DNA from: an uncultured Clostridia bacterium
Lineage (GTDB): Bacteria > Bacillota > Clostridia > Lachnospirales > Anaerotignaceae
Length of the DNA stretch: 64,000 bases
Direction: 5' to 3'
Assembly (NCBI GenBank): GCA_945868505.1
Contig: CAMBLO010000004.1
Location: 45,063 to 109,062 of the forward strand
Within the stretch, counting starts at the first letter, position 1. Every line of letters begins with the position of its first letter. Both the position numbers and the translations under genes were made by a program. This document shows positions 14,006-29,719 of this stretch, piece after piece. Under the pieces are notes generated by a model. The model searched no databases. It had not been told where the DNA came from and saw only the letters and a list, made by a program, of their open reading frames with translations.

Positions 14006-15612
14006 AAAGATCTTTCGCAAAATACATTGCTTTGTTTTTGGCAGCAGCGGTTGCCCTTGGTGCAGCCGGCTGCGGAAAAGATCAGGCAGAGCAGCAGGAA
14101 GAAAATGCTGTGGTAAGTGAAGAAAATGTGGATACAGAGGGCGAAAACAGCGGTAAAGATGCTGCCTCCACAGGCGAAAACGAGGAAAGCGACGAGGATG
14201 CAGCCCTGCCTGCGGCAAAAAAGAATGATCTGCAGGACGCCGTTCTGGCTGCTGATGGTGCGCCCAGCGTGGTGGCTTCTGCAGCGATCCTGATCGAAGC
14301 ATCCACAGGGACGATTTTATATGAAAAAAATCCGGACCAGAAGATGTATCCCGCCAGCATGACAAAAATGCTGACAGCTCTGGTGGCTTTGGATTACTTT
14401 GAGCCCGAAGAACTGATCAAGGTCGGCACTGAGATCAATGAAGTAACGCTGGACTCCAGCAAGGCAGGCCATCAGTTGGGGGAAACTCTGACCATGAAAA
14501 ATGCCATCAGAGGGCTGATCATTCCTTCCGGGAACGATTCTGCCAATGTGGTTGCGGCAGCAGTAGCAAAAAGAGCGGAAAATGACGAAAGTCTTGGTTT
14601 TGCCAAATGTGAAGCTATTTTCACAGACCTGATGAATCAAAAAGCGGAAAAACTGGGGGCAACAAACAGCCATTTTGCCAATGCCCACGGCTATCATTCG
14701 GAAGATCATTATACCACAGCCCATGACATGGCACTGATCGCCAGAGCCTTTATGGAAAATGAAACCTTGGCGGAGATTGCCAATGAAAAGAGTTTTTCCG
14801 GCAACGGCGCGGATAATATGTTCGAAAGCAATGAAGATATGAAGACCCAGGAATACGCATGGCGCAGCCATAACCTGCTTATTATGGATGGGGAGTACAA
14901 CTATCCTTATGCAACAGGCATCAAGACTGGTTTTACAGACGAAGCGGGGGAATGTGTAACGGCGGCAGCGGAAAAAAATGATGTGCAGTTGATCGCGGTT
15001 ATTTTCCATTCCGAAGACCCCAACCGTTGGCTGGATGCGAAAAACCTTTTCGAATATGGCTTCAATAACTACCAGAAGATCGAGATTGCAAAAGCAAATG
15101 CTGCAATTGAAGAGGTTCCGCTGACGAAACATAAAAAATCCGAAGGCGATACCCTTGCAGTGGTATTCAAAGAAGATATGGTCACTTTCCTGCCCACATC
15201 CATTGGGAATAGTCTGAAAGCAACAGTAACATACAATGCAGACTACGCGGTAACCGATAAAGAAGGCAATGTTTCTTTGAAGGCACCCATCGAAAAGGGT
15301 GCGGAAATCGGTACAGCCTCCTATGAAGTGAAAGGCAAAACAGTTCTGGAAGCACCTGTTTATGCCGGCAGAGATGTATCTAAGGGTACGATTTTTAGTT
15401 CCATTGGCTATTTCTTTAAAAATCTGTTTACCCTGAAGGGAATCCTGACGCTGGTTGGCATCATCGTGGTGATCGCCGTTGTCATTCTTGTGATCAAATT
15501 GATCGGCAATCGCAGAAGCAGCAGACGCAGAGGCGGCTATAGCTTTGGCTCTGGTCTGAATATGGGCGGAAGCGGCAGAAGAAGACGCAGAGGCGGCAAA
15601 AGACGTTTCTGA
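14002..15612 (+). CDS. Serine-type D-Ala-D-Ala carboxypeptidase (PBP5/DacB-like lipoprotein)
   Basis: The lipoprotein signal is MKRSFAKYIALFLAAAVALGAAGCG. The active-site motifs are SMTK (ASMTKMLTA), SGN (IPSGNDSA) and KTG (IKTGFT). The C-terminus has a TM helix plus an Arg/Gly-rich tail. Confidence 0.85.
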   Translation: MKRSFAKYIALFLAAAVALGAAGCGKDQAEQQEENAVVSEENVDTEGENSGKDAASTGENEESDEDAALPAAKKNDLQDAVLAADGAPSVVASAAILIEASTGTILYEKNPDQKMYPASMTKMLTALVALDYFEPEELIKVGTEINEVTLDSSKAGHQLGETLTMKNAIRGLIIPSGNDSANVVAAAVAKRAENDESLGFAKCEAIFTDLMNQKAEKLGATNSHFANAHGYHSEDHYTTAHDMALIARAFMENETLAEIANEKSFSGNGADNMFESNEDMKTQEYAWRSHNLLIMDGEYNYPYATGIKTGFTDEAGECVTAAAEKNDVQLIAVIFHSEDPNRWLDAKNLFEYGFNNYQKIEIAKANAAIEEVPLTKHKKSEGDTLAVVFKEDMVTFLPTSIGNSLKATVTYNADYAVTDKEGNVSLKAPIEKGAEIGTASYEVKGKTVLEAPVYAGRDVSKGTIFSSIGYFFKNLFTLKGILTLVGIIVVIAVVILVIKLIGNRRSSRRRGGYSFGSGLNMGGSGRRRRRGGKRRF

Positions 15613-15660
15613 TAGAAAACAGATAAATTGAATCGATATGAAATAGAATAAAGCAAAAAA

Positions 15661-15705
15661 CCGACTGTCTGATGACATATCCTGCCTAAGACGGTCGGTT
15701 TTTTG
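15661..15705 (+). terminator. Rho-independent terminator after the carboxypeptidase gene
   Basis: ccgactgtct (15661-15670) pairs with agacggtcgg (15689-15698) with one G-T wobble, followed by a T6 run. Confidence 0.75.
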
Positions 15706-15779
15706 TGTAACAAAGCTGCAATGGGGAAAGGCTTTTTGCTTTTGCGGCGGTTTTTGAAGATGAATTACAATTGTATTTT

Positions 15780-16440
15780 GACTTCTACGGTCAGCGGTAT
15801 TCAAGGGACGGGTCTGGGAATGGCGATTGCCAAAAATATCGTTGATATGATGAATGGTAATATTTCTGTAAGCAGCGAAGTTGGTAAGGGAACAGAATTT
15901 ATCATCTCCCTGCAGTTTGCTGTTTGCGGAAAACAAAAAAAGAGAAGAATGTACCCGAGCTGAAAGGCTTGCACGCTTTGGTAGCGGATGATGATTTTAA
16001 CACTTGTGCCAGTGTTTCCAAGATGCTTACCAGCATAGGGCTTCGAGCAGAATGGACAACATCAGGGAATGAAGCAATTTTGCGAACGACTTTTGCCAAA
16101 GAAAATCATGATGAATTTCAGGTTTATATCATTGACTGGCTGATGTCCGATATGAATGGGATCGAGGTTGTCAGAAGGATTCGTAAAGTCATAGGGGAAG
16201 ATAAACCAATCATTATTCTTACGGCCTACGATTGGTCGGATATTGAAGCGGAGAAGAGAAGCGGGCGTTACCGCATTCTGCGAAAAGCCCCTGTTCCTGT
16301 CCGAATTGCAGGATACCCTTTTGGCTTCGGCAGGATATTCGATTGCCGGAGAGGCTTCTTTAGAAGACAAAGCGGCATCTTTTGTAGGAAAGCATGTTCT
16401 TTTAGTAGAGGATGTGGAACTGAACAAGGAGGTTGTCTGA
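15780..16440 (+). pseudogene. Relic of a hybrid sensor histidine kinase/response regulator, truncated at both ends and frameshifted at least twice
   Basis: Frame a carries the end of an HATPase_c domain only (TSTVSGIQGTGLGMAIAKNIVDMMNGNISVSSEVGKGTEFIISLQF). Frame b carries a REC domain (LHALVADDDFNTCASVSKML...IIDWLMSDMNGIEVVRRIR...IIILTAYDWSDIEAE). Frame c continues with AGVTAFCEKPLFLSELQDTL and the first residues of a second REC domain (KHVLLVEDVELNKEVV), then stops. No HisKA/dimerisation or sensor part precedes it. The frame changes lie near the A7 run at ~15933 and near ~16255. Confidence 0.8.
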
Positions 16441-16479
16441 GGACAATCTCCTTTTTGCATAAAAATAAGATTGTCCTCA
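16438..16479. repeat. Perfect 12-bp inverted repeat with an 18-nt spacer, exactly at the 3' break of the kinase relic
   Basis: tgaggacaatct (16438-16449) and agattgtcctca (16468-16479) are exact reverse complements. No T tract follows. Confidence 0.8.
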
Positions 16480-16506
16480 GAATATTGGGTGAACCTACCC
16501 ATTTTC

Positions 16507-16534
16507 TTGACATTTTATAGAAAGAATATAAAAT
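16507..16534 (+). promoter_or_regulatory. Candidate sigma-A promoter for the pilus operon
   Basis: TTGACA (16507-16512), a 16-nt spacer, then TAAAAT (16529-34) in an AT-rich region ~90 nt upstream of the giant gene. Confidence 0.45.
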
Positions 16535-16578
16535 AAAAGTAAAGAATTCTGTAAACTTGAGATAGTTCCGCATTTTTT

Positions 16579-16603
16579 TGGCAGCTATTCGATATAGCTG
16601 CCA
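16579..16603 (+). promoter_or_regulatory. Perfect 10-bp inverted repeat (hairpin or operator) in the leader of the giant pilin gene
   Basis: tggcagctat (16579-16588) and atagctgcca (16594-16603) are exact reverse complements with a 5-nt spacer. The repeat abuts the SD region GGCGAGGGTG. Confidence 0.6.
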
Positions 16604-16624
16604 GGCGAGGGTGTGTATAATAAT

Positions 16625-19600
16625 ATGATGAAAAATAAATTTTGGCGAAAAATATTTTGTAAAAGGAAAGGGCAGAAGGGTTTTTCTTTGGGAGAGGTCT
16701 TGCTGACTGTTGGGATATTATGCATTTTGATTGCTGTCAGTTTTCCGGCAATTGGATATTTTAGCCGCCTGCTGAATCAGACCAAGTTGGATAATATGGC
16801 GAAAGAAATCTTTATTTCTGCCCAGAATAAGTTGGTTACTATGAAAGCCTGCGGCATGGAAATGCCTACAGGCAACACTATGGGGATGGAACCTCCTACC
16901 GATTACGACAAAGATGCTATGGGGGAATGGCCCAATCAAGGGAGTGAGATTGACCCCTTTGTTTTTGTGTCCTCCGACGATACAGCCTTTACCTTTATGG
17001 ATGATACCCCCATTGGGAAGGACTATCAGGAGGGAAAATATATCATTGAGTTTAACCGTAGCACAGGGGATGTCTACGGTGTTTTCTATTGGGAGCCACA
17101 GGAGTTGGATTTTGGCGGAAGCTCTTCCTTTGTATATGCATCCCATTATAATACATACACAAATGGAGAAAAAACCTATCAGCTGCGTGATGAAAAAAAA
17201 CAGCGGATGGATTCTGGGTTGAAAGTAGGATATTACGGCGGTAATGGCACGCAGGCCATGGCAGATGCCAAGGAGTTTAAGTTCAATGCAGAGCTGACCA
17301 ATGCGGAAAAGCTGCAGCTGAAGCTTACGCCAGAGAATCATACTGTTGGCATGGATACCAGATATGTTGTTACACTGCGATCTGCAACAGATACAACCAA
17401 TCCAAAGGAATATACCATTGGGTTGCAATATGTTAACGGCGCACCCCATAGTGTCACCATAGATGCCGATGGAAAAGGAACCATTGGCGCGTTGGATGCT
17501 GTCAATATTGAAAAGCTGAATACAGAATACGGTTTCCTGATTACGCTGGACAGCGTAGAAGCAGGGCAGCATTTTGCAAATCTCTTTCCGGAAATTGTTG
17601 CAGGGGACGATATTTCTATCAAGGTGCAGGCTTACTATCTGGGCAGTAAGGAAATCTATGTTGCAAAGAGTAACTATGAAACGATACAAAATACTCTGTT
17701 TGCTGATGTGCGTCAAGATGCAGGATTGGCAAATCCGAAAGGGAAAAACGTTGCCGTTGCAACTGGCAGACATTTGCAGAATCTTTCCAAAGAGGCTTCT
17801 CATTTGGGATACACCACCAATGAGAATGAAGCATTGGAAACAAAAACGAACTATCCGATCGTCAATACAAAATTGCTGAACGATATCAACTGGCAGGATG
17901 CGGCTTACAATTATAATGAAAAAAACACGCTGTATAGTGCAAGTATGTCTTTGAACAGCTTCCAGCCTATCTGTAACTATGATACGGGGCTGAGGGTTTT
18001 TGACGGCAATGGATGGACGATTTCCAATTTATATGTTACAAAATATACAGACAAAACAAATACGGATAATATCAGAATGGGTGCCGGGCTGTTTGGCGTG
18101 GTGTATAATGATACAACCATTAAAGATTTTACGATGCAGGATTGCTATGTTGAAAGTACAAGTGCAGCAGTGGGAACTGTTGTCGGTACTTTTGCCAGCA
18201 GAGAGGCGGCATCAACAAAGAGCTATTTGCAGGATATTGAGGTGATCGACTGCACTGTTAAAATGACAAGAAATGCCCATTCCGGTATGCTTACTGGTTA
18301 TGTCACATTGACGAATAACGACGGAACGGATTTGGTTTCCATCCAGCATGGCGTTTATATCCAAAATTGTGGGGTATACCTCTCTGATGAAAATTCCGAT
18401 GCCTATTATCAGGAATTTAAAACAGCAGATATCAACCACGCTGTAACAAATCATAACGGAAATGCCGGCGGTTTGGTAGGGTATTTGGATAAGGGTTGTC
18501 TGGTAATTCAGGATTCCTTCTCAGCAGTGAATGTTTATGCCGGTGCCAATGCCGGCGGTTTGGTTGGCGCTACGAATGATAAGTTGTATATCAACAATAG
18601 CTATTCCTCCTGTATGGTGGATTCTGAAGGAGAAGCTGGTGTTGGTGCCGGCGGCTTGGTTGGGAAATATACCAAGGGCTGGATCAAGGCGGAAAACTGT
18701 TTTACTACTTGCGATGTTTCCGCAAATTGTTATTCCGGCGGCGCCTTCGGGCATTTGATAAAACCTAGTCAGCCCTATAGCTCTGCCAGCATTCAGGTAA
18801 AGAATGTACAAAGCTATGGTACCGTTTCCTGGAAAGGCGGCATTTGTGCAGACGAGAAGAATATGACCATAGGAGAAAGCTTTTCTGGCGGCTTTATCGG
18901 CAGGATAGAGAAAGGCCTTTTGGAGTGGGGGAATACAAAAAACAATTTTTACATAGAAAGCTGTCAATATCTTTCTATGAAGGGCTATAACAACAGCAAC
19001 CCAGGTGACAATAGCAATGCCATCAAAGGCTATGGCTGTGATTATAAAAATCTTTCGTTGTATCCGAATGTAAAAATTGATATCAAACCTTCTTTGTATG
19101 AGGAATCCGATAAAGTGAGCGGTGAGATTTTGCCCTTTATGCCCCAGATGAATCTTCCTGTAGATCGGCAAAAGATGCTGACGCATGCCTACAGCAATGA
19201 TTTGCAGGGTTATCCGTATCCTTTCCGTTTGCTTACATATGAGGATCATGCATCGGAATATATTCCTTACCATGGCAACTGGCCGAAAAAGGGTGAGATT
19301 GAGACTGCGTTGGTCTACTATGAAAAATATGTAAAATTTAAGGAAAATACGACAGTAGAAGAAAGTGAACTTTATGGCTACTATGCTGTGACTACCATTG
19401 GGGAAGGACAGTCCGCGTGGACGCTGGATACCCTGAAAACGCAGGAATGGCTGGATGGGAATAGCTATAGCCTTGTGGAGGATGGCTATGCCCTCCTTTC
19501 TACCTATCAGCTTAAGGAGTTTACCTATACCCTGAATGGGGATATGGGGGATGCTGTGGAGAAAACGGGTACGATCAAAATTTCTGATGATGAACCATCT

Positions 19601-22600
19601 ATGGAATCCAATAAGGCTGATGGAAAAGCGCAGAGAATTGGAGGAGCTATGCAGGAACTGGTGTTGGAGCAGGAGGGGGCTGAAAAGCTGACAGTTCATG
19701 CTGAAATTTATAAGTTTCCTTTCTTCCTGCAGGATATCTCAAAGAATAGAACGCTGGAATTTTATGATAAGCTGGAAATTAGCTATACCGCAGATCATAA
19801 ATATGATGAAAATGGGGTTTTACAGGAATTGGTAGACCTGGTGGAAAAATTGAAGGATGCAGGTAAAGAGCCTCCCGCCAACTGGAACCCTATGGAAGGT
19901 AATAAATATGTTGTAAATGATAACTATACCTTCTATTATTGTTGCCATTTTGGTAAAACAGCTATCAATCCCTATGTAGGCAGAATGGCTGCCCGCAGAC
20001 CCGCCAGAGCCCACGAGGTTTATGTGCGCTCTGCAAGACACCTGAACGCTATTGGTCGCTATCCTTATTATTGGAACAGTAACAATAATGAAAAATGGAA
20101 GAAGTATGCCTTTCAACAGGAGCTGGACTTGAATTTCAGCACCTACACAACAAAGTACTGCGGAGAAAATAGCTTTTTTATGAATCCGCAGGATTGGGAT
20201 GAAGCAAGTAAAAGCTTTACAAGGGGTTATGAACGTAATGTATACGAAAACCGTGTGATCGGCAGAACAGGTGAGATAGAATATCAGGATCCCAATACAG
20301 GAGAATGGATAAAATATTTCAACTTCCAAAATGATTATGACGGTGGTGGCTATCAGATCATCAATTTTAAACTGTATGCGGAAGGTCTCTATTATGTGGG
20401 TCTTTTCGGCGAGGTATATGGCAGTACGCTGGAAAACATCCACCTGACAACGGATGATGAACTGGCAAGGCTTTTTGAAGGCGAGAAGTATAACGAAACC
20501 TATGGCGGCAGCTATTTGGTTGCTGCCTATACCTACCAAAAACTGCAATATATCAACCCGGATTGGAATGATGACAACGGAATAGCACATAACTACGGTT
20601 TGGGTGCTTTGGTGGGCAAGGTATATTGCGGCACAGGGGCATCTGCCAATGCTGTTATTATTAAAAACTGCTCTGTCAGCGGTTACAGTGTGATAGGGAA
20701 GATGGACCCCACGGAAAAAGTTGGTGAACATATCGTGAACCAGTTTCCTAGAACTGCAAGAAACTATGGTTTTCATGTGGGTGGTTTTGTTGGCTTTAAT
20801 AATGGTTATATCGTTAACTGTACAGCGGAAAATAAACTGGTGCAGTTTGAATATGCACACCCCCATAATAATTCTTCCTATGGCAGAGAAAAGACGTTGG
20901 GCGGCTTTGCCGGCTCCAATCAGGGTGTCATTGCAAGCAGCTATGCCGGCGGAAAACTGGAAATTACAGTGAATGAAGATGCAAGAGAACGCTTGGATAC
21001 TGCAAAAAGTGAGTTTTATATAGGCGGGTTTGCGGGTACAAACTGCTATGCGGGTTTTGCATACGAAAGCGGTAATACAGCTTATCCTGATGGAACAAAA
21101 GGTGTTCTGTTGAAGGATTGCTATTCCTTCTGCTCCATCACAAAGGACGAAACAAGCAATCAGTATGTTCCTGCGGAGAATATTTATGGTGTTACATGGA
21201 CAACGGATACAGCTCCAATTGCGAATGATTATGAAAATAGCATAAACAAATGGCATGGTTCCAGCTTCAATGCAACAGCAGAAAATGTAGCCAACTGCTA
21301 TTATTTGGCAGAATTGGTACAGTTGAATGAAAACGGAGAGGATAAACGCCCTATGGATGAAGCGTGGGTGGTTGGAATCGGAGGCGAGCATTGCGGCATC
21401 ACGGCAGACACAATGCGGGATATTCCTGCCTTCAGCACTTTGCTGAATCAATCTATGGCAGGGGAATCCTATGCTGTAAGACAAAATGGAACTACTGTAA
21501 CTGTTCTGCTGAAAAACTTTGCTGAGACATCCCTGACGGCGGAAAAATCCTATCCATATAGCAGAAGTTTGCAGGGAAAATCCTATGTTTTCCCTGCCGT
21601 AGTGCAGAATCACGCTGGTGAGTATGTGCATTTCGGCGATTGGCCAAATGTGCTGGAAAAGGTGCTGGGACTGTGCTACTATGAGAAATATGGCGATGGT
21701 GACTATGGTCTGTTTATCCGTGGCATCAATGCTGACCTGTATACGAAAGATGGAGCATTGGATACCTATCTTTCCTATGTAGATACGCTGGAGTATGACC
21801 CTGCAAGCACAAAACGGGTGCAAGCAAGCGGTTATTGTATCGCTGCTACCACAAGAGTGGAGGGTTCCAAGCTGTCCGGCTATACACCATTGGCTGAACC
21901 TCTTGTTATGGAGAACTATCAGTTCTATGAATTGCCAACGACAGGCATTACAAAGGATGCAAATACTGGTATTTGCAGCATGAATTTGCCGGGCTATGAT
22001 GTTGCTGCCTCCTATCACCCTGATTTTGGGGCGGCAATTAAGTTTGGAGATTTGACGCAGGATGCAAATAACTTGACTTATGCTTCCGATTTGCCTGTAT
22101 ATCAGGTGAGAAACCGAACACAAATGGAAAACATTAGTTCTCTTGATTCAGGTGGTTTGCCGTTGTATAGCCAGTATACCTTCCATCAGACTATGAATAT
22201 TGACACTGGCCTGATCGAAGGGGATGCTCTTATTGCATCTATGCCTTATAATACTATATTGGATGGCAAAGGCAGCCATTATGATAGTGAAACAAAGGTA
22301 TCTGTGCCAGCCGCTGCATCCTATACAATTACAATGACACTGAAAAACTCTGTTGCCGGCAGTGGCATAAAAAATGTCGGTTTGATTGGCAGTAATATGG
22401 GTATGCTTCAAAATCTTGTTTTAGATGGCAGTGCGGAATGTACCTATCATCTGTTTACCGGCGGATTTAACTTTGGTGTTCTTGTAGGTTGGAATTTGGG
22501 AGGGACAGTAGAAAACTGTATTTCTAAAGTGAACATGACTTTAAAAGGAGAAAGTTCAGATTCCATTCTTAAGGATTCTTATATCGGCGGTTTGATTGGG

Positions 22601-23272
22601 ATAAATCAGGGCGTTTGCCGCTCTAGCTATGTTGATTGTACGATTCTTGGAGCTGACAGTGTTGTGAAAAGCAATGGCACCATAAATATTGGCGGCTTGG
22701 CTGGATCTTCGCCAAATGTGATTGAGGATTGCCAAGTAAACGGAAGCATTGCTTCTGGCACAACTCTTGCAGTGAGAAATAACGATTTGGCGATTGGTGG
22801 CTTGGCTGGTGAGGCGGGAACAAACATCGCAAGAAGCTTTGTATTTGCTTCTATTGGTGAAGGCGCAGCGATTGAAGAATATAAAAATCTTGCGGTTGGC
22901 GGTTTTCTGGGTAATATTAAAAGTGAAAATGTTACGGCGGAAGCCTCCGGTTTTGCTGGAAATATTAGAATTAGTATCACTGGTAATAAAGTGTGGATTG
23001 GTCAGTTTGTTGGTTTGACAAATAACCATGATACTTTTATATCCTGCTATGGCTGGGAGACAGAAAACAGCCGTCCTTTTAGCGGCGATGATAAGCCAAA
23101 TACAGTTTATAACGGATGTTATTATTATGGAACAGATCCAGGTAAGACAGGGCTTATACCAACGACGGATATCAATGCAGTTCTGTCTGGTTTGCAGGCA
23201 CCAGAAGGATGGCAATGGCAGATGGACACAGAGAAAGGTGTTCCGATACTAACGAAAATCACAGTGCCCTAA
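16625..23272 (+). CDS. Giant pilin-like protein: a prepilin (class III) leader and N-terminal hydrophobic helix, followed by ~2,150 aa containing three GLUG-repeat modules
   Basis: The ORF is uninterrupted. Possible starts are GTG 16613, ATG 16625 and ATG 16628. The N-terminus is MMKNKFWRKIFCKRKGQKG|FSLGEVLLTVGILCILIAVSFPAI, which has the G/FxLxE motif. GG(L/F)(V/A/I)G repeats spaced at ~25-30 aa lie at nt 18461-18905, 20396-21070 and 22376-23050. Each block is preceded by a DG-G-x-I motif (FDGNGWTISNL, YDGGGYQIINF, LDGKGSHY). There is no Sec-type signal peptide and no LPXTG or SLH anchor. Confidence 0.8.
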   Translation: MMKNKFWRKIFCKRKGQKGFSLGEVLLTVGILCILIAVSFPAIGYFSRLLNQTKLDNMAKEIFISAQNKLVTMKACGMEMPTGNTMGMEPPTDYDKDAMGEWPNQGSEIDPFVFVSSDDTAFTFMDDTPIGKDYQEGKYIIEFNRSTGDVYGVFYWEPQELDFGGSSSFVYASHYNTYTNGEKTYQLRDEKKQRMDSGLKVGYYGGNGTQAMADAKEFKFNAELTNAEKLQLKLTPENHTVGMDTRYVVTLRSATDTTNPKEYTIGLQYVNGAPHSVTIDADGKGTIGALDAVNIEKLNTEYGFLITLDSVEAGQHFANLFPEIVAGDDISIKVQAYYLGSKEIYVAKSNYETIQNTLFADVRQDAGLANPKGKNVAVATGRHLQNLSKEASHLGYTTNENEALETKTNYPIVNTKLLNDINWQDAAYNYNEKNTLYSASMSLNSFQPICNYDTGLRVFDGNGWTISNLYVTKYTDKTNTDNIRMGAGLFGVVYNDTTIKDFTMQDCYVESTSAAVGTVVGTFASREAASTKSYLQDIEVIDCTVKMTRNAHSGMLTGYVTLTNNDGTDLVSIQHGVYIQNCGVYLSDENSDAYYQEFKTADINHAVTNHNGNAGGLVGYLDKGCLVIQDSFSAVNVYAGANAGGLVGATNDKLYINNSYSSCMVDSEGEAGVGAGGLVGKYTKGWIKAENCFTTCDVSANCYSGGAFGHLIKPSQPYSSASIQVKNVQSYGTVSWKGGICADEKNMTIGESFSGGFIGRIEKGLLEWGNTKNNFYIESCQYLSMKGYNNSNPGDNSNAIKGYGCDYKNLSLYPNVKIDIKPSLYEESDKVSGEILPFMPQMNLPVDRQKMLTHAYSNDLQGYPYPFRLLTYEDHASEYIPYHGNWPKKGEIETALVYYEKYVKFKENTTVEESELYGYYAVTTIGEGQSAWTLDTLKTQEWLDGNSYSLVEDGYALLSTYQLKEFTYTLNGDMGDAVEKTGTIKISDDEPSMESNKADGKAQRIGGAMQELVLEQEGAEKLTVHAEIYKFPFFLQDISKNRTLEFYDKLEISYTADHKYDENGVLQELVDLVEKLKDAGKEPPANWNPMEGNKYVVNDNYTFYYCCHFGKTAINPYVGRMAARRPARAHEVYVRSARHLNAIGRYPYYWNSNNNEKWKKYAFQQELDLNFSTYTTKYCGENSFFMNPQDWDEASKSFTRGYERNVYENRVIGRTGEIEYQDPNTGEWIKYFNFQNDYDGGGYQIINFKLYAEGLYYVGLFGEVYGSTLENIHLTTDDELARLFEGEKYNETYGGSYLVAAYTYQKLQYINPDWNDDNGIAHNYGLGALVGKVYCGTGASANAVIIKNCSVSGYSVIGKMDPTEKVGEHIVNQFPRTARNYGFHVGGFVGFNNGYIVNCTAENKLVQFEYAHPHNNSSYGREKTLGGFAGSNQGVIASSYAGGKLEITVNEDARERLDTAKSEFYIGGFAGTNCYAGFAYESGNTAYPDGTKGVLLKDCYSFCSITKDETSNQYVPAENIYGVTWTTDTAPIANDYENSINKWHGSSFNATAENVANCYYLAELVQLNENGEDKRPMDEAWVVGIGGEHCGITADTMRDIPAFSTLLNQSMAGESYAVRQNGTTVTVLLKNFAETSLTAEKSYPYSRSLQGKSYVFPAVVQNHAGEYVHFGDWPNVLEKVLGLCYYEKYGDGDYGLFIRGINADLYTKDGALDTYLSYVDTLEYDPASTKRVQASGYCIAATTRVEGSKLSGYTPLAEPLVMENYQFYELPTTGITKDANTGICSMNLPGYDVAASYHPDFGAAIKFGDLTQDANNLTYASDLPVYQVRNRTQMENISSLDSGGLPLYSQYTFHQTMNIDTGLIEGDALIASMPYNTILDGKGSHYDSETKVSVPAAASYTITMTLKNSVAGSGIKNVGLIGSNMGMLQNLVLDGSAECTYHLFTGGFNFGVLVGWNLGGTVENCISKVNMTLKGESSDSILKDSYIGGLIGINQGVCRSSYVDCTILGADSVVKSNGTINIGGLAGSSPNVIEDCQVNGSIASGTTLAVRNNDLAIGGLAGEAGTNIARSFVFASIGEGAAIEEYKNLAVGGFLGNIKSENVTAEASGFAGNIRISITGNKVWIGQFVGLTNNHDTFISCYGWETENSRPFSGDDKPNTVYNGCYYYGTDPGKTGLIPTTDINAVLSGLQAPEGWQWQMDTEKGVPILTKITVP

Positions 23273-23296
23273 TGGGCAGAAAAAGAGGGGAACGAA

Positions 23297-23959
23297 ATGA
23301 ATTGTGTAAAAAGAAAACTGAAAAGCACAGGCGGTGCGTCTATCATCATTGCGCTGCTGTTCTTCCTCATTTGCTGCACAGTCGGGGTGTCGGTTCTGGC
23401 GGCGGCGAAGGCAAATGCCTCCCGCCTTGTCAGCCAGCGGGAAAGTGAGGAAGCTTATCTGGCTGTCCGCTCTGCTGCCATGTTGATGCGGGAGAAGATG
23501 GAAACATCGCAATCGCAGCCTTTTACTGAATGTGAAGAGATTTACGATAATGCAACTACTTGGAAACAACTGAGCACAGAGAATCCGACGAATTCCTTCT
23601 GGAAAAAAATTGAGAATGGGATGTATCAACTGATTCAAAAAGAAAGCGGTTCTGAAAGCTGTGCGTTCATTTTTCAGGCGGAGGATATACCTGATGTTTC
23701 TGCAAATGTGACCATTTCGAAAAAGGAAGGAAAGTATACCTTGCAAGGACTGCTCTCCTGTGTAGAGGACCCTGCAGCAGGGGATGTTTATACTTATTTG
23801 ATGACCCTGACAGAAACAGGGGAACCCAAAATGACACACCGTGAGCCAATTACGAAAATAGTGGAAAATGAAGATGGATCCACTTCAGAAAAAATAATCG
23901 GAGAGCGGCGACAATATACCATCAGCTTTTCCAATGGGCAGCTTGAGGTAACGAATTAA
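23297..23959 (+). CDS. PilX-like minor pilin or pilus-associated protein with a non-canonical leader (no Glu5)
   Basis: The N-terminus is MNCVKRKLKSTGG|ASIIIALLFFLICCTVGVSVLAAA, a basic leader, Gly and hydrophobic helix without Glu at +5, as in the PilX_N/GspK type. An SD (AGAGGGG) is present. The gene sits among the pilin genes. Confidence 0.5.
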   Translation: MNCVKRKLKSTGGASIIIALLFFLICCTVGVSVLAAAKANASRLVSQRESEEAYLAVRSAAMLMREKMETSQSQPFTECEEIYDNATTWKQLSTENPTNSFWKKIENGMYQLIQKESGSESCAFIFQAEDIPDVSANVTISKKEGKYTLQGLLSCVEDPAAGDVYTYLMTLTETGEPKMTHREPITKIVENEDGSTSEKIIGERRQYTISFSNGQLEVTN

Positions 23960-23973
23960 GGAGGGGCAGAAGG

Positions 23974-24294
23974 ATGTTTCAAAAACTGAAAAATACATCG
24001 GGCGAAACCTTCATCGAAGCCTTGGCGGCGTTGCTGATTATGGGCTTTTCCACGGTGCTTTTCATTGGATTGGTGATGGCGGCAAAAAATGTGAATATGA
24101 TTCAGAAGGAAGCCGATGTACGCTTTTATGCAGCTATGGAAAAGGTGGAGGTATTGGAAGGTACAAATGCAGGAGGAAACCCGGAAGTCATTCAAGTGAA
24201 GATCAGTAACGGTAATGGGATGCTGTTGGAAACCATCGATTGCCAGTTGACAGAGGCAGATCATTTGCGAGCCTATGAAATTAAGAAACCATGA
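23974..24294 (+). CDS. Minor pilin/pseudopilin (prepilin-type N-terminal domain)
   Basis: The N-terminus is MFQKLKNTSG|ETFIEALAALLIMGFSTVLFIGLV, with Gly at -1, Glu at +5 and a hydrophobic helix. The protein is 106 aa. An SD (AGGAGGGG) is present. Confidence 0.7.
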   Translation: MFQKLKNTSGETFIEALAALLIMGFSTVLFIGLVMAAKNVNMIQKEADVRFYAAMEKVEVLEGTNAGGNPEVIQVKISNGNGMLLETIDCQLTEADHLRAYEIKKP

Positions 24295-24305
24295 GGTGAA
24301 GGAAT

Positions 24306-24818
24306 GTGAACAGAAAAACCAAAGAAAATAAGGGCTTCACCTTTATTGAAATGCTTCTTTCGCTGGTGCTGCTGGGGTTTCTTTCCTTAGTGGTGGGGGC
24401 AGGCAGTACAACTGCATTGAACGTGTACCGAGACGGGGTTGGCTATGCGGAATCCCGCGCCCTTTCTGCTACCCTGCTGATGGCAATGGAAAATGATTTA
24501 CGCTATGCAAAAGATTTGAGAATGGAGGGGGATACGGTGAAATTCACCAGCCCTTATTATGGTAATGAGTCTTCTTTTCTGGTGGAGAATGGACGGGTCA
24601 AAGTCCAGAGAACAGTGGGTGAAAGCCAGGAAAAGGTTCTTTTGTTGGGCGAAAAAATGTACAGCAATGGATTGGGGGTAGACTCTCTCGCTGTTATGGT
24701 GGATAATTCTGATACAGTCGAAGGTGAGTATGGACGAAAGGTTACTGTAACAATTACTATGAATGATGGTAATACAGTATCTACCAGTCTTTTGAATATT
24801 AATATGGGAAAACAATAG
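24306..24818 (+). CDS. Minor pilin/pseudopilin (prepilin-type N-terminal cleavage/methylation domain)
   Basis: The N-terminus is MNRKTKENKG|FTFIEMLLSLVLLGFLSLVV, a canonical G/FTxxE leader. The start is GTG at 24306, after GAGGTGAAGG. Confidence 0.8.
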   Translation: MNRKTKENKGFTFIEMLLSLVLLGFLSLVVGAGSTTALNVYRDGVGYAESRALSATLLMAMENDLRYAKDLRMEGDTVKFTSPYYGNESSFLVENGRVKVQRTVGESQEKVLLLGEKMYSNGLGVDSLAVMVDNSDTVEGEYGRKVTVTITMNDGNTVSTSLLNINMGKQ

Positions 24819-24872
24819 TTATTTAAGAATGATTCTTCAAAAAGATAAATTGTATTTTATTATATAATTTTG

Positions 24873-24901
24873 TTGCAGAAAGCGAATTTTGCGTTTAAAA
24901 T
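24873..24901 (+). promoter_or_regulatory. Possible internal sigma-A promoter ahead of pilB
   Basis: TTGCAG (24873-78), a 17-nt spacer, then TAAAAT (24896-24901) in the 140-nt AT-rich gap between the minor pilin genes and pilB. Confidence 0.3.
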
Positions 24902-24961
24902 ACCATTATATGCAGATATAGAATTTGAATTTTTGGAATGAATGACGAATAGGGGGCTGTG

Positions 24962-26656
24962 ATGAAATATAAACGGCTCGGGGATTTATTGGTTTCCGTT
25001 GGTCTGGTAACAGAAGAACAGATTCAGGAAGCCTTAACCCTACAAAAGACAACAAAAAAACGCCTGGGCGATCAGCTGATCGCTTCCGGCTATATTACAC
25101 AAAAGCAGTTGATTGAAGCACTGCAGATGCAGTTGGGGATTGAATTTATCGATTTGAGTGATTATGAGATTCCTGCGGAGCTGGCTCGCGTTATTCCTAA
25201 AAATATCGCCAGAAAATATCAGGTTGTGCCGATTCGTTTATCAGGGGATACGTTGTTCCTTGCCATGAGTGACCCCATGAACTTTATGGCGATCGAGGAA
25301 GCCAGAACTGCTTCCCGCAAAAAAATCGTCCCTATGATTACATATAGCGACAGCATCGAGCGGGCGATTTTGAATCTTTATGGCAACGAGGGTGCGATGC
25401 GTGCCATCGAGGAAATGAAGCGGGAAATCGGTGATGAGGATATCCCCGTGGCGGGGGTGGCATTTCGGACGAATGCCATCGATACAGATGCCCAGTCTGC
25501 ACCCACCATCCGTCTGGTAAACAGTATCATCGAACGAGCAGTCACTCTTCGTGCCTCTGATATCCATATCGAACCCATGCAGGATATTTTGCATGTGCGG
25601 ATGCGAATCGATGGGCTGATGCGCAGCATTATGAAGATTCCCAAGAATCTGCAAAATGCGGTCATTTCCCGCCTAAAAATTATGGGCGGCATGGATATTG
25701 CCGAGCATCGTGTCCCTTTGGATGGCAGAAGCGAGGTGCAGGTGAGAGATTTGAACATCGACCTGCGTATCTCCACTCTGCCCACAGTATACGGCGAAAA
25801 GGTGGTTGTCCGTTTACTGGACAAATCCTCCCAAAGGCTGGATAAGGAAAAAATCGGCCTGACGGGGGACGATCTGCGGAAATATAACGCACTCTTGGCT
25901 CACCATTCCGGTGTGGTGCTGATTGTAGGCCCCACAGGTTCCGGTAAATCCTCCACCATGTATACCATGATTGGGGAACTGAACAAAGAAGAAGTCAATC
26001 TAGTTACTTTAGAGGATCCTGTGGAATATAATATCGAAGGTGTCAATCAGGTGCAGATCAATGAAAAGGCGGGCATGACCTTTGCCAACGGTCTGCGTGC
26101 CATCCTGCGTCAGGACCCTGATATCATTGCCGTGGGGGAAATTCGAGACGGCGAAACGGCGGAAATTGCCATGCGTGCCGCTTTGACAGGTCATCTGGTG
26201 CTTTCTACCGTGCATACCAACGATGCCATTTCCACTTTGGACAGATTGGAAAACATCGGCGTAGATGAATACCTGACGGTTTCCGCGCTGAAGGGCATCA
26301 TTTCTCAGCGATTGGTGCGGCGTATCTGCCCCCATTGCAAGGAGGAATATGTTCCCTCCGGTGAGGAACTGGAATTCATGGGTATGGAAGGGGAAAAGGA
26401 CGTACACTTTTTCCATGGAAAGGGCTGTCCCCGCTGCTTCAACACAGGATATTCGGGGCGAACAGCCGTATTTGAAATTCTGACTATGAACCGCAGACTG
26501 CGGACAGCTTTGATGCAAAAGGTGGATCGGGATGAATTCCTTCGTCTGGTGCAGCAGGGGGATTTCACTTCCATTTTTGAAAACGGCAGAAGGCTGGTAC
26601 GAAATGGGGAAACTACGGTGGAGGAAATCCGTCGTTGTCTGAATACTGAGGATTGA
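24962..26656 (+). CDS. pilB: Type IV pilus assembly (extension) ATPase PilB (GspE family)
   Basis: It has the T2SSE_N-like N-domain (LGDLLVSVGLVTEEQIQEAL...), the Walker A GPTGSGKSST, the Asp box, the Walker B (ILRQDPDIIAVGEIRD), the His box (GHLVLSTVHTND) and the tetracysteine motif (CPHC...CPRC). Confidence 0.92.
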   Translation: MKYKRLGDLLVSVGLVTEEQIQEALTLQKTTKKRLGDQLIASGYITQKQLIEALQMQLGIEFIDLSDYEIPAELARVIPKNIARKYQVVPIRLSGDTLFLAMSDPMNFMAIEEARTASRKKIVPMITYSDSIERAILNLYGNEGAMRAIEEMKREIGDEDIPVAGVAFRTNAIDTDAQSAPTIRLVNSIIERAVTLRASDIHIEPMQDILHVRMRIDGLMRSIMKIPKNLQNAVISRLKIMGGMDIAEHRVPLDGRSEVQVRDLNIDLRISTLPTVYGEKVVVRLLDKSSQRLDKEKIGLTGDDLRKYNALLAHHSGVVLIVGPTGSGKSSTMYTMIGELNKEEVNLVTLEDPVEYNIEGVNQVQINEKAGMTFANGLRAILRQDPDIIAVGEIRDGETAEIAMRAALTGHLVLSTVHTNDAISTLDRLENIGVDEYLTVSALKGIISQRLVRRICPHCKEEYVPSGEELEFMGMEGEKDVHFFHGKGCPRCFNTGYSGRTAVFEILTMNRRLRTALMQKVDRDEFLRLVQQGDFTSIFENGRRLVRNGETTVEEIRRCLNTED

Positions 26657-26671
26657 TAAGGGAGGAACCCT

Positions 26672-27727: not shown

Positions 27728-27751
27728 GATTGATAAGGGAGGTGGGTTTCC

Positions 27752-28960: not shown

Positions 28961-29099
28961 AAACGTGGTGCTATGTAAACAAAATTGATGTAGCATCCCT
29001 ATCCCCTGACCAACCATGGGAGATGGCGGAATTACATATTTAAACTTAAAAAACAAACACCGAAAGGTATAAATAACAAAGAGAAGGGAGTTTTATGAT

Positions 29100-29492
29100 A
29101 TGATGAAATTGAAAAACCGTAAAGGTTTCACACTGGCGGAGTTGCTGATTGTTGTAGCAATCATTGGTGTACTGGTAGCAATCTCCATCCCTGTTTTTAC
29201 TGGACAGTTAACAAAGTCGCGTCAAGCTACAAACGAGGCAAATGCACGTGCTGCAAAAGCTGCCACAGTAGTCTGGTACTTAGAACAGAATGCGACACCT
29301 GCAGGAGATATAACAAAAGTGTACATCTGCAAAGATGGTACAATTACTGAGGGAGATCCACTTACTACTGCGACGGTTTCTGCTGCTGATTCCGGCGATC
29401 AGTCAAAATACCCTGGTACAGCTGTCTATGAAAAAGTATCTGTTACAATCGACACTGATGGCGTTGTAAAAAGCTATGGATTTGGTAACTAA
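29100..29492 (+). CDS. pilA: Type IV major pilin
   Basis: The N-terminus is MMKLKNRKG|FTLAELLIVVAIIGVLVAISIPVFTGQL, a textbook prepilin leader and alpha-1 helix. The protein is 130 aa. An SD (AAGGGAG) is present. Confidence 0.9.
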   Translation: MMKLKNRKGFTLAELLIVVAIIGVLVAISIPVFTGQLTKSRQATNEANARAAKAATVVWYLEQNATPAGDITKVYICKDGTITEGDPLTTATVSAADSGDQSKYPGTAVYEKVSVTIDTDGVVKSYGFGN

Positions 29493-29667
29493 GAGATAAG
29501 GACGGGGGACGGTTCTCTGTCCCAATCTTAACAACATAATTCAAATGCCAAGCATCCGTGAAGGCAAGGTAGTTGATAAAATCATACACGAATGAAACTG
29601 AAAGCCATCGTACTATTTTTGTATGGCTATATTTTCGGCGAGGGCTTAGGTTGGGGTCCTTGCCGGC

Positions 29668-29719
29668 TATTGCTTTCCCCAAGGGGCTGTCTGCGGACAG
29701 CCCTTTGCAGAAAGCAATA
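29668..29719 (+). promoter_or_regulatory. Nested stem-loop between pilA and the next pilin gene (possible partial terminator or processing site)
   Basis: The outer arms tattgctttc (29668-77) and gaaagcaata (29710-19) are exact complements. The inner arms gggctgtc (29684-91) and gacagccc (29696-703) are also exact, with a tgcg loop and ttt after the inner stem. The SD GGGAAGGAGG follows directly. Confidence 0.55.

Follow-up and report, generated by a model that had tools for sequence, protein, structure and literature searches.

The window, a 64,000-nucleotide stretch of DNA, carries a gene whose 2,215-amino-acid product is pilin-like at its N-terminus. The protein falls within a family of oversized pilins from gut-type Clostridia that is very large and uncharacterised. 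Because members of this family lie beside small partner pilins, the protein most likely serves as an adhesin incorporated in a pilus tip complex. The fuller reading, in which a retractile type IV pilus carries it as a giant, modular minor pilin that acts through the tip-complex mechanism proposed below, is the one we favor with moderate confidence. The gene and its parts are as follows, with a slash in any quoted N-terminus marking the predicted cleavage site.

16625-23272, plus strand: giant modular prepilin gene, open throughout from its ATG; 2,215 aa
16625-16681, plus strand: class III leader peptide, residues 1-19; basic, ending in Gly19, the predicted PilD cleavage site
16682-16849, plus strand: alpha1 helix of the pilin module, residues 20-75; hydrophobic alpha1N and the conserved family motif LNQTKLDNMAKEIFISAQN
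16850-17269, plus strand: small beta-sheet head, residues 76-215; AlphaFold strands, with invariant YxIExN...VYGVFYWE and VGYYGG
17270-17740, plus strand: Ig-like beta-sandwich, residues 216-372; all-beta in AlphaFold, pLDDT mostly 83-96
17747-19279, plus strand: module 1, residues 375-885; AlphaFold beta-helix that opens with GRHLQNL...FDGNGWTISNL and ends with YPYPF...HGNWP
19280-19999, plus strand: inter-module region 1, residues 886-1125; starts ...WP-x-LVYYEKY
20000-21649, plus strand: module 2, residues 1126-1675; VRSARHLNAI...YDGGGYQIINF, GLUG rungs, ends YPYS...FGDWP
21650-22159, plus strand: inter-module region 2, residues 1676-1845; resembles region 1 in its opening stretch only
22160-23074, plus strand: module 3, residues 1846-2150; distal and GLUG beta-helix-like, two stretches matching Pfam GLUG (31.0 bits)
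23075-23269, plus strand: C-terminal tail, residues 2151-2215, from hydropathy and motif scan; 43% identity to P0002

The original prediction of an uninterrupted 6.6-kb ORF holds; the frame is open to 23272 and also offers an alternative GTG start at 16613, upstream of the ATG. The L086 assembly (SRR25936295) contains an equally long ORF that shares the leader; this copy is 99% identical and differs at 16 synonymous and 20 non-synonymous sites; per site, synonymous change exceeds non-synonymous change (dN/dS ~0.34). The L085 relative (63% identity) is colinear with the giant protein from end to end, and full-length colinearity is seen in homologues at 39-63% identity. The ORF is thus intact in independent assemblies (L086 and L085) and is not an assembly artefact. 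GC content in the gene is ~0.43, below that of most flanking stretches.

The N-terminus reads MMKNKFWRKIFCKRKGQKG/FSLGEVLLTVGILCILIAVSFPAI, with Phe at +1 and Glu at +5 of a hydrophobic helix, as had been proposed, and the N-termini quoted earlier for the other pilins (genes at 29100, 24306, 23974, and 29740) are all correct. In three family alignments (A1-A3), Glu24 (+5) is invariant and Gly19 nearly so, and the prepilin motif is kept in 245 of 250 homologues; the other five either have Asp at +5 or come from a fragment or from truncated gene calls. A hydropathy scan of the whole protein found residues ~19-45 as its sole hydrophobic segment. The AlphaFold model (pLDDT 84.5, pTM 0.81) shows a 54-residue alpha1 helix across residues 22-75 (pLDDT 80-94), followed by the beta head. 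Matches to N_methyl and TIGR02532 had been expected near residues 15-40; Pfam N_methyl does align there (residues 14-39), yet it scores 14.2 bits, short of its 21.2-bit cut-off (17.8 bits when residues 1-215 are searched alone), and TIGR02532 reaches 12.6 bits against 16.3. A profile of the family matches alpha1N of ~20 solved pilins (E 2.6e-12 to 4e-4), and in most of these its position 15 falls on mature residue 1, which puts Phe20 at residue 1. The motif, the profile alignment, and the predicted helix together support a pilin-like protein. The globular pilin fold is unconfirmed because a Foldseek search with the head (residues 76-215, with predicted strands at 112-116, 138-144, 150-156, 177-186, and 201-205) gave no significant match among solved pilin heads, the best pilin-type match being GspH (E 1.9); no Pfam model covers this region.

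Beyond the pilin module, the AlphaFold-predicted domain structure extends to residue 900 (coverage 1-900). Foldseek matched the Ig-like domain only weakly, to Ig V domains, and Pfam matched neither this domain nor either inter-module region (886-1125 and 1676-1845). The three modules open with their predicted motifs at residues 459, 1238, and 1880, in agreement with the nucleotide positions first given, and all of the GG[LF][VAI]G copies (4 + 3 + 4, at residues 615-755, 1386-1467, and 1988-2092) fall within the ranges claimed for them. Multiple Pfam GLUG matches had also been anticipated, which proved right for module 2 (18.5 bits) and module 3 but not for module 1. The latter, with four GG[LF][VI]G rungs, was recognised through structure and family profile only: its beta-helix matched 3n6z (Foldseek E 2.4e-6) and the IgA1 proteases 7uvk, 6xja, and 6xjb (1e-5 to 2e-4), and the profile matched the N-terminal beta-helix of IgA1 protease at E 1.1e-15. 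Modules 2 and 3 were aligned by hhalign at 95.5%, and inter-module regions 1 and 2 at 87.9% probability over the GDWP/YYEKY junction. These data support three diverged GLUG beta-helix modules. Module 3 is the fastest-evolving part of the protein, at 38% identity to P0002 compared with 85/79% for the pilin module. Neither an LPXTG motif nor a C-terminal transmembrane segment was thought to exist; hydropathy and motif scans indeed found no transmembrane segment or sorting signal in the tail, but an internal LPTTG string is present at residues 1770-1774. No transmembrane segment or charged tail follows it, three (P0003-P0005) of the four aligned homologues that are colinear over their full length lack it, and it was rejected as a sorting signal in favor of a chance match.

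The surrounding features are listed in base-pair order.

16507-16534, plus strand: sigma-70-like promoter match ahead of the giant gene, TTGACA-16-TAAAAT; agrees with the consensus at 11 of 12 positions
16581-16603, plus strand: perfect 9-bp hairpin GGCAGCTAT-tcg-ATAGCTGCC, read from the sequence; lies in the 5' leader, immediately ahead of the ribosome-binding site
23297-23959, plus strand: partner minor pilin without Glu5, 220 aa; G/ASIIIALLFF by sequence
23974-24294, plus strand: partner minor pilin, 106 aa; SG/ETFIE, weak ComGE resemblance
24306-24818, plus strand: partner minor pilin, 170 aa; KG/FTFIEML, a neighbour conserved in other loci
24959-26656, plus strand: PilB extension ATPase; Pfam T2SSE and MshEN, 3e-129
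26672-27727, plus strand: PilT retraction ATPase; Pfam T2SSE, 8e-44
27752-28960, plus strand: PilC platform protein; Pfam T2SSF, 1e-55
29100-29492, plus strand: major pilin PilA, 130 aa; N_methyl 33.7 bits, PilA/GspG/ComGC-type N-terminus
29740-30165, plus strand: additional pilin-like protein, 141 aa; QG/LSTVELL, from sequence only
30177-30947, plus strand: prepilin peptidase/N-methyltransferase PilD; Pfam A24_N_bact 3.4e-20, Peptidase_A24 3e-14
30971-31963, plus strand: PilM; PilM_2, 1.3e-27
31976-32617, plus strand: PilN-like ORF, by position only
32614-33186, plus strand: PilO-like ORF, mainly by position
33283-33295, plus strand: terminator-like hairpin and T-run ending the co-directional pil cluster; pattern scan, consensus match only

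The putative promoter, a consensus match only, is the top-scoring site in 15500-33500; the leader hairpin matched no family in Rfam. Directly downstream of the giant gene lies a prepilin-like gene (23297-23959) missed in the original prediction, whose product resembles ComGG (E 6.6e-4) and GspK (E 0.044), both sub-threshold; a protein of the same kind, KL[KR]SxxG/AS..ALLFFL, accompanies family members in other genomes. The 24306 product exceeds the cut-offs of both Pfam N_methyl (26.1 bits) and TIGR02532 (23.2 bits). From such sub-threshold matches as exist, the partner pilins may be provisionally assigned to the I, J, and K classes. Family searches with the 29740 product returned no match, and the PilM-PilN-PilO stretch (30971-33186) gave a weak T2SSM match (5e-4, below the Pfam cut-off). 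The giant gene, the Glu5-less pilin, and two pilins of ~100 and ~170 aa form a conserved four-gene cassette, and the evidence supports a genetic tie between the giant gene and a complete type IV pilus system (PilB, PilT, PilC, PilA, PilD, and PilM, with PilN- and PilO-like ORFs).

Across the family, pilus machinery, partner minor pilins, or both adjoin the gene in 45 of 47 well-flanked loci, and the ~100-aa G/E(T/S)xxE pilin does so in 34. Long homologues are usually, though not always, linked to pil genes: machinery lies within 10 kb for 22 of the 25 members that are 1,300 aa or longer. The position as first gene of the pilus operon is true here but clade-specific; in other genomes the cassette follows pilO, is divergent from pilB, or stands apart from machinery genes. 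The architecture is also less unusual than was claimed. With the N-terminal 458 aa as query, at least 1,643 cluster representatives at 50% identity were recovered, and the family occurs across at least 224 species-level genomes, so the giant protein is no isolated case. Members span 145-4,598 aa among the 150 representatives listed. NCBI labels family members 'prepilin-type ... domain-containing protein'. The N_methyl-GLUG architecture appears in the survey of Raynaud et al. 2021, catalogued yet never studied; our literature search found no experimental data on any family member.

An unlikely alternative is that the protein is processed by PilD and displayed at the surface without ever joining a long pilus, either held by alpha1N while its beta-helix stalk spans the wall, or topping a short T2SS-like pseudopilus and merely pushed through peptidoglycan. 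This fits a very large protein with one hydrophobic helix as its only anchor, and in 18 of the 47 well-flanked loci no pilus machinery lies within 10 kb of the cassette. Work on Clostridium perfringens makes the case that certain clostridial type IV pilus gene sets serve as T2SS-like exporters through peptidoglycan, a barrier to folded proteins >25 kDa (bioRxiv 10.1101/2024.11.04.621531). The main model, for its part, requires a 240-kDa subunit to pass a thick monoderm wall to reach the pilus tip, and no solved or characterised pilin met in our searches approaches that size. Against surface display without a pilus, the locus encodes PilT and a typical major pilin, marks of true retractile pili; its partner set includes a Glu5-less cap, like filament tip complexes; and the long members are largely machinery-linked. 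Because the two models differ in filament length only, sequence discriminates poorly between them.

The original suggestion that the modules might be enzymatic fares far worse, and we consider it very improbable. On that reading, the GLUG modules would form a peptidase of M26 type (IgA1-protease-like), or else a glycan-degrading beta-helix enzyme, borne on the pilus or secreted. GLUG (IPR011493) is tied to M26 peptidases, Raynaud et al. interpreted the IPR012902-IPR011493 architecture as a predicted peptidase, and the Foldseek and profile matches are to IgA1 proteases. However, those matches are confined to the N-terminal beta-helix (chain residues 159-330, roughly residues 823-994), a non-catalytic domain that binds the substrate's Fab (PMC7695701), whereas the HEMTH active site (1604-1608) lies in a domain without counterpart in the giant protein. 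A motif scan of all 2,215 aa found no HExxH, so the protein is not an M26 peptidase; only 1 of 250 homologues has this motif, and Pfam, NCBIfam, and PDB sequence searches over the whole length found no catalytic domain. As for an assembly chimera or a non-functional remnant with a coincidentally pilin-like start, the sub-threshold N_methyl score and lower GC would be in keeping with it, but it is effectively refuted by the same-length ORF in an independent assembly, the dN/dS value, the full-length colinear homologues, and the family-wide retention of prepilin motif and synteny.

Under the favored reading of a giant minor pilin, the class III signal would direct membrane insertion, leaving the ~2,190-residue C-terminal part outside, and the locus-encoded PilD would cut after Gly19 and methylate Phe20. 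Helix alpha1 would then dock with the 220-aa Glu5-less, cap-like partner and the 106- and 170-aa partners to form a priming complex from which PilB polymerises PilA; as pili grow from the base, this complex would end at the distal tip. In known tip complexes of core minor pilins, a Glu5-less subunit caps the complex, which starts assembly (PMC10191384). The 23297 product is the probable cap, and the giant protein, since it keeps Glu5, is probably a subunit just under it; an adhesin in the tip complex, as originally proposed, is therefore the best reading, but a place at the extreme tip is less likely. Modular pilins display grafted adhesive modules (PMC8179133). Here, the Ig-like domain and then the three GLUG beta-helix modules would project as a rigid stalk, with the distal, fastest-evolving module the most likely binder of a ligand on a host, dietary, or microbial surface, and PilT retraction would then pull on that contact.

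The giant ORF lies on the + strand and is open without a break from either a GTG at 16613 or an ATG at 16625 to position 23272; translation from the ATG gives a protein of 2,215 aa. That the frame is uninterrupted, as originally described, is confirmed by L086, a 99%-identical copy in an independent assembly, where the ORF has the same length and the same leader. Between the two copies, 16 differences are synonymous and 20 are non-synonymous (dN/dS about 0.34), and this second intact ORF of the same length rules out an assembly artifact. A more distant relative at 63% identity, on the syntenic contig L085, is colinear with the giant protein from end to end. The giant gene is also, as had been stated, the first gene of the pilus cluster at this locus, which has the following features:

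Upstream of the cluster: MutS, MutL, MiaA, a CmpB-like protein, a D-Ala-D-Ala carboxypeptidase and a small receiver-domain ORF (Pfam/NCBIfam)
16507-16534, +: sigma-70-like match TTGACA-16-TAAAAT, 11/12, the best in the region (consensus match)
16625-23272, +: giant gene, start of the co-directional pilus cluster
23297-23959, +: 220-aa prepilin-like protein, KLKSTGG↓ASIIIALLFFLICC (G↓ASIIIALLFF; here and below, the arrow marks the predicted cleavage site), without Glu5
23974-24294, +: 106-aa pilin, SG↓ETFIE
24306-24818, +: 170-aa pilin, KG↓FTFIE, N_methyl and TIGR02532 over cut-off
24959-26656, +: PilB (Pfam)
26672-27727, +: PilT (Pfam)
27752-28960, +: PilC (Pfam)
29100-29492, +: PilA, 130 aa
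29740-30165, +: 141-aa pilin-like protein
30177-30947, +: PilD, with both the A24_N_bact N-terminal and the peptidase domains (Pfam)
30971-31963, +: PilM (Pfam)
31976-32617, +: PilN-like ORF, assigned mainly by position
32614-33186, +: PilO-like ORF, assigned mainly by position
33283-33295, +: terminator-like hairpin behind the PilO-like ORF (pattern match)
Downstream of the cluster: Tgt (Pfam/NCBIfam)

By the Pfam and NCBIfam matches on either side, the surroundings of the pilus cluster are those of a chromosomal stretch. Genes within the cluster are separated by 11-25 nt, except for gaps of ~140 nt before pilB and before pilA and of 247 nt after pilA. The pilin-type N-termini first quoted for the neighboring genes were correct; the list of pilin-like genes had overlooked 23297-23959, directly downstream of the giant gene. 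A c-di-GMP riboswitch is known upstream of the C. difficile pilin gene; an Rfam search of the whole window yielded no riboswitch, that class included, and no other RNA family. The ~85-nt leader of the giant gene contains a perfect 9-bp inverted repeat, GGCAGCTAT tcg ATAGCTGCC, at 16581-16603 (+), downstream of the promoter-like site and upstream of the ribosome-binding site. No T-run follows this repeat and Rfam has no match for it; it may form a regulatory or mRNA-stabilizing hairpin. Within the gap behind pilA (29493-29739), a 13-pair stem-loop at 29635-29666 (+), without a strong T-run, may be an attenuator setting the ratio of the major pilin to the downstream genes. The Arg/Gly-rich ORF that overlaps this gap (29592-30041) has no matches and looks spurious. 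Beyond the cluster, a Cys/Phe-rich 432-aa ORF at 33313-34611 (+), with a TTG start and no Pfam match, is probably the shadow of a real 382-aa gene at 33337-34485 (-); the equivalent position in L086 holds a 382-aa - strand gene for an RlmL/THUMP-type methyltransferase. The small receiver-domain ORF (15700-16520, +) abuts the giant gene upstream, is preceded in L086 by a HATPase_c fragment and has no counterpart at this position in L085; it could be a remnant or an accessory two-component element. At the locus of P0075, another homologue, a hybrid kinase lies upstream and an RR-HD-GGDEF protein downstream of the pil cluster. Between 16001 and 26000, the GC content of the giant gene and its minor-pilin cassette is 0.43-0.45, lower than in most neighboring 2-kb windows (0.46-0.53). 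The cause may be amino-acid composition, the repeats being rich in Gly, Asn and Tyr, or a separate evolutionary history of the cassette.

The N-terminus of the giant protein is MMKNKFWRKIFCKRKGQKG↓FSLGEVLLTVGILCILIAVSFPAI, with a class III site, KRKGQKG↓FSLGE, that combines a short basic leader, Gly at -1, a hydrophobic residue at +1 and Glu at +5. Hydropathy over the full length detected a sole hydrophobic segment, at residues ~19-45. In all three family alignments, Glu24 (+5) does not vary and conservation of Gly19 is at least 90%, and the class III motif was found in 245 of the 250 family proteins retrieved, with Phe at +1 in 222; the remaining five have mis-called starts, are a fragment, or carry Asp at +5. 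The homologues listed all start with (K/R)G↓F(T/S)LxE and ~20 hydrophobic residues, followed by the family-specific motif L(R/K)Q(T/K)ELDxxAxxI(F/Y)xAAQN, and NCBI labels several members as a [quoted passage not shown]. The HMM matches originally expected were obtained for GLUG, in modules 2 and 3, but the N_methyl models hit the expected residues only below their cut-offs: PF07963, with a cut-off of 21.2 bits, scored 14.2 (17.8 when only residues 1-215 were scanned), and TIGR02532 scored 12.6 against 16.3. Many homologues pass the PF07963 cut-off. At the level of the whole family the evidence is much stronger than these scores: a family profile matched the N-terminal helices (alpha1N) of ~20 solved full-length pilins (E 2.6e-12 to 4e-4), including Geobacter PilA-N, Myxococcus PilA, Thermus PilA4/PilA5, S. 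sanguinis PilE1, PAK pilin, PpdD, gonococcal and meningococcal PilE, and MshA; for most of these the alignment was in register, with mature residue 1 at profile position 15, exactly at the predicted cleavage site. The membrane-anchor and alpha1 part of the giant protein is a pilin by every test run.

AlphaFold2 was run on residues 1-900 (31-sequence alignment; pLDDT 84.5, pTM 0.81) and on residues 1-215 (pLDDT 83.7). The N-terminal structure prediction, which had been proposed as a check, gave an unbroken helix at residues 22-75 followed by five to six short strands. A Foldseek search of the 1-215 model against the PDB found no significant relative: acetyltransferases appeared at E ≥ 0.6, the best pilin-type structure was GspH (2knq) at E 1.9, and neither a pilin head fold nor an H/I/J/K class was obtained. 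No Pfam or NCBIfam model spans the conserved head plus Ig region. On the predicted model, the head is pilin-like in topology only.

Downstream of the head, residues 216-372 were predicted to form an Ig-like beta-sandwich and residues ~375-830 a right-handed beta-helix. The module-opening motifs are present as first described (FDGNGWTISNL at residue 459, YDGGGYQIINF at 1238 and LDGKGSHY at 1880), and GG[LF][VAI]G motifs occur as groups of four, three and four at residues 615-755, 1386-1467 and 1988-2092. Pfam GLUG scored 23.7 bits on the whole protein, 18.5 bits on module 2 and 31.0 bits on module 3. With Foldseek, the predicted beta-helix matched BACOVA_03286 (3n6z; E 2.4e-6, TM 0.55 on target) and the Gram-positive IgA1 metalloproteases 7uvk, 7uvl, 6xja and 6xjb (E 1.6e-5 to 2.4e-4). 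A phmmer search of PDB sequences with the single full sequence gave nothing useful; sequence matches in the PDB came only with the family profile, which matched S. pneumoniae IgA1 protease over chain residues 159-330 at E 1.1e-15 (a second E for this domain group was 2.3e-10). That stretch falls in the N-terminal domain beta-helix, residues 781-1070 (Wang et al. 2020, PMC7695701); the N-terminal domain binds the substrate, IgA1, at its Fab and acts as a gate to the active site, and the zinc site, HEMTH at 1604-1608, belongs to another domain (PMC7695701).

The suggestion that the modules might be enzymes found no support in these searches. No HExxH occurs anywhere in the giant protein by motif scan, just one of 250 family members has one, and Pfam, NCBIfam and PDB sequence searches found no catalytic domain in any segment of the 2,215 aa. 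Membership of the M26 IgA1-specific metallopeptidases was rejected: the GLUG beta-helix is present, but without HExxH or the middle and C-terminal catalytic domains, and the matches are limited to the non-catalytic beta-helix. Because motif and catalytic domain are both missing and the match is to a non-catalytic domain, the GLUG modules are predicted to be binding or structural beta-helices, not a peptidase. The original statement that there is no LPXTG was wrong as to the literal string, which occurs as LPTTG at 1770-1774, but right as to the anchor: the motif is internal, 440 residues before the C-terminus, is followed by no hydrophobic segment and is missing in the homologues P0003-P0005, so sortase anchoring is ruled out.

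BLASTP of the giant protein against itself detected no internal repeats, the modules being too diverged. Profile-profile comparison linked modules 2 and 3 at 95.5%, modules 1 and 2 at 60.7%, at the C-terminal junction only, and modules 1 and 3 at 38%; the junction motif ...YP(Y/F)...(H/F)G(N/D)WP...YYEKY..., found after modules 1 and 2, was linked at 87.9%. By these comparisons, the modules are related, though very diverged. Identity to the closest full-length homologue is 85% in alpha1, 79% in the head, 73% in module 1, 64% in module 2 and 38% in module 3. Across the wider family only residues ~1-680 can be aligned; the modules beyond are shuffled, added or replaced, and some relatives have Flg_new or Big_2 repeats.

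The protein had been thought very unusual, yet it belongs to a large family. Residues 1-458, upstream of the GLUG repeats, match 1,643 cluster representatives (clusters at 50% identity) with the limit set at E ≤ 1e-3, and 692 with E ≤ 1e-10, with lengths of 145 to 4,598 aa among the matches listed (150 of the 1,643 representatives). A genome scan, using one genome per species and a 12-sequence alignment as the query (a 31-sequence one was too divergent), identified 224 family loci in Lachnospiraceae, Oscillospiraceae, Ruminococcus, Anaerovoracaceae, Erysipelotrichaceae and others. The best matches, at 46-49% identity, were in an uncultured Bacillota MAG, Lachnospiraceae NSJ-143 and an Anaerotignum MAG. 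Since the carriers include several cultured strains with pil-linked members (Enterocloster lavalensis KCTC 15153, [Clostridium] asparagiforme DSM 15981, Hespellia stercorisuis DSM 15480, Emergencia timonensis SN18 and Aminicella lysinilytica DSM 28287), the model is directly testable.

Forty-seven loci were well flanked (at least 4 kb upstream and 3 kb downstream). PilB/T/C/D/M genes lay within 10 kb in 29 of these, and machinery and/or partner pilin genes adjoined the family member in 45. The expectation that long homologues sit beside pil genes held for most but not all: machinery was within 10 kb of 22 of the 25 members of at least 1,300 aa (88%), the other three lacking it, versus 7 of the 22 shorter members. 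Where machinery was missing, pilins of ~100 aa (G↓E(T/S)xxE) and ~160-200 aa (G↓F(S/T)xxE) directly preceded the family member in 15 of 17 loci, usually together with a ~210-290-aa "KLRSxxG↓AS..ALLLFLVC" protein without Glu5. This Glu5-less partner is conserved in relatives as "G↓AS..ALLFFL" and accompanies family members in many genomes. The four-gene cassette seen in the window recurs elsewhere in the order Big-K-I-J or K-I-J-Big, the order in the window's clade being giant, Glu5-less, ~100 aa, ~170 aa. Its place varies: before pilB in the window, L085 and L086, after pilO at the loci of the homologues P0014 and P0075, and divergent from pilB at that of P0003. One Lachnospiraceae MAG (L027:5000-12400) has two complete cassettes in tandem, each encoding ~100-aa, 160-180-aa and 760-790-aa pilins, an arrangement reminiscent of the multiple minor-pilin/PilY1 clusters in Myxococcus. 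In Hespellia stercorisuis and another Lachnospiraceae MAG (L022 and L032), the family member exceeds 4,190 aa and its frame does not close before the locus ends.

Among characterized systems, the modular pilins of S. sanguinis, PilB with a vWA module and PilC with a lectin module (Raynaud et al. 2021, PMC8179133; Shahin et al. 2023, PMC9934059), are the closest. They too have a class III signal and a pilin module bearing a grafted non-pilus domain in a monoderm host, and the modular-pilin definition of Raynaud et al. 2021 describes the giant protein, in which pilin module 1-215 is followed by the Ig-like domain and GLUG beta-helices. With a small partner pilin, the two S. sanguinis modular pilins form a tip-located adhesive complex that replaces the core minor-pilin set, PilHIJK (PMC10191384, PMC8179133). 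S. sanguinis PilB is ~50 kDa with one grafted module, whereas the giant protein is ~240 kDa, with the Ig-like domain, three beta-helix modules and two inter-module regions but no vWA or lectin module, and its partners differ in being three small pilins, one of them Glu5-less. An N_methyl-GLUG architecture (IPR012902-IPR011493) was reported in a six-protein line of Dataset S1 and one Discussion sentence that takes it for a predicted M26 peptidase; neither size, synteny nor structure was analyzed there (Raynaud et al. 2021, PMC8179133). These proteins almost certainly belong to the same family, which is far larger than the six listed because most members fall below the HMM cut-offs. The published peptidase reading is probably an over-interpretation of the GLUG signature, as that signature marks a non-catalytic beta-helix and 249 of 250 members lack HExxH. 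A literature search for GLUG pilins, giant pilins and clostridial minor pilins found nothing beyond that dataset line, and no paper analyzing the size, cassette or structure of these proteins.

The second parallel is PilY1/PilC with PilHIJK (FimU-PilVWX/GspHIJK/ComGDEFG), where a large modular tip adhesin likewise sits on a small core minor-pilin set, one of them Glu5-less, the carrier is conserved and the effector variable, and some genomes have several alternative cassettes (two in tandem in L027). However, PilY1 does not belong to the pilins, and its defining feature is a C-terminal beta-propeller (IPR008707/PF05567), for which the giant protein gave no Pfam or NCBIfam match at E ≤ 1; the giant protein is itself a pilin with alpha1 and Glu5, and its partners are placed in the I, J and K classes by sub-threshold matches. 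By analogy, it would work like PilY1 plus PilHIJK. Thermus thermophilus ComZ (large beta-solenoid module; PMC6561018) and the T4b CofB and TcpB are also large minor pilins with a beta-rich addition, proposed to lie at the tip, but they are much smaller and have fewer added domains (ComZ has one beta-solenoid, and in CofB a linker leads to two beta-domains), and neither sequence nor Foldseek searches matched the giant protein to any of the three. The GLUG-type right-handed beta-helix is common to the giant protein, the IgA1 metalloproteases (6XJA/6XJB, 7UVK) and BACOVA_03286 (3N6Z); unlike the metalloproteases, the giant protein has no middle/C-terminal catalytic domain, no HEMTH and no functional LPXTG anchor, and it begins with a prepilin signal rather than a Sec signal. 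Because the modular-pilin concept is the closest, and the PilY1 and M26 tests failed, the giant protein is classed as a multi-module pilin that lies at the upper end of known pilin sizes and belongs to a large, conserved, uncharacterized family. The core of the original prediction, a pilin-like subunit with beta-helix modules, stands.

Core minor pilins form a complex with a Glu5-less cap, from which filament assembly starts (PMC10191384), and the complex therefore ends up at the tip. Four pilin-like genes are encoded together at this locus (the giant gene, 23297, 23974 and 24306), and by analogy this cassette fits such a scheme. Sub-threshold resemblances were found between the 220-aa product of 23297 and ComGG (6.6e-4) and GspK (0.044) and between the 106-aa partner and ComGE (0.0036); the 170-aa partner had sub-threshold pilin-class matches at its N-terminus only, and the giant protein matched none of the GspH/I/J/K or ComGD/E/F/G families. 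The 23297 product, without Glu5 and faintly ComGG/GspK-like, would likely be the cap, the 106-aa protein, faintly ComGE-like, a likely I-like subunit, and the 170-aa protein a further core subunit. The giant protein, which keeps Glu5, would be best placed beneath the cap as a fourth subunit, with its Ig-like domain and beta-helices pointing outward. Three beta-helices with linkers would provide a stalk of a few tens of nanometers (estimated from ~4.8 Å per rung and 30-40 residues between GLUG motifs), the fast-diverging distal module is the obvious candidate to contact a ligand, and retraction would come from PilT. Processing of the giant protein by PilD, its incorporation into a filament, its place in the complex and its binding of a ligand are inferred.

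The size of the giant protein, and the cassettes that lie far from machinery genes, could instead indicate display on a short pseudopilus or simple membrane anchoring. We consider this unlikely, given the PilT and the normal PilA encoded at the locus and the 88% machinery linkage among long members. That the protein acts as an enzyme is very improbable with both catalytic motif and catalytic domains missing, and an artifact or pseudogene, against which stand the intact independent copies and conservation across the family, may practically be dismissed. A bolder reading, possible rather than probable, is that the type IV pilus priming complex of gut and rumen Clostridia (Lachnospiraceae, Oscillospiraceae, Anaerovoracaceae, Erysipelotrichaceae) includes, as its fourth and integral member, a polymorphic "mega-pilin" 0.7-4.6 thousand residues long, with a conserved ~680-residue base (pilin, Ig-like domain and first beta-helix) and interchangeable, fast-evolving beta-helix modules.

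To our knowledge, target binding by type IV pili of Gram-positive commensals has been dissected only for the ~50-kDa bimodular pilins of one streptococcus. The database-driven peptidase reading of the family is corrected here, and the family raises a concrete physical problem, the passage of a 240-kDa subunit through a thick wall on a filament tip. It would carry the modular-pilin principle an order of magnitude up in size, to hundreds of gut and rumen species, and it points to a PilY1-like functional equivalent in monoderms. If the mega-pilin reading is true, these proteins would fill the role of the non-pilin PilY1 in diderms, the pilus would act as a retractable carrier displaying adhesins ten to twenty times the size of any pilin so far studied, and genomes could swap specificity via alternative cassettes.
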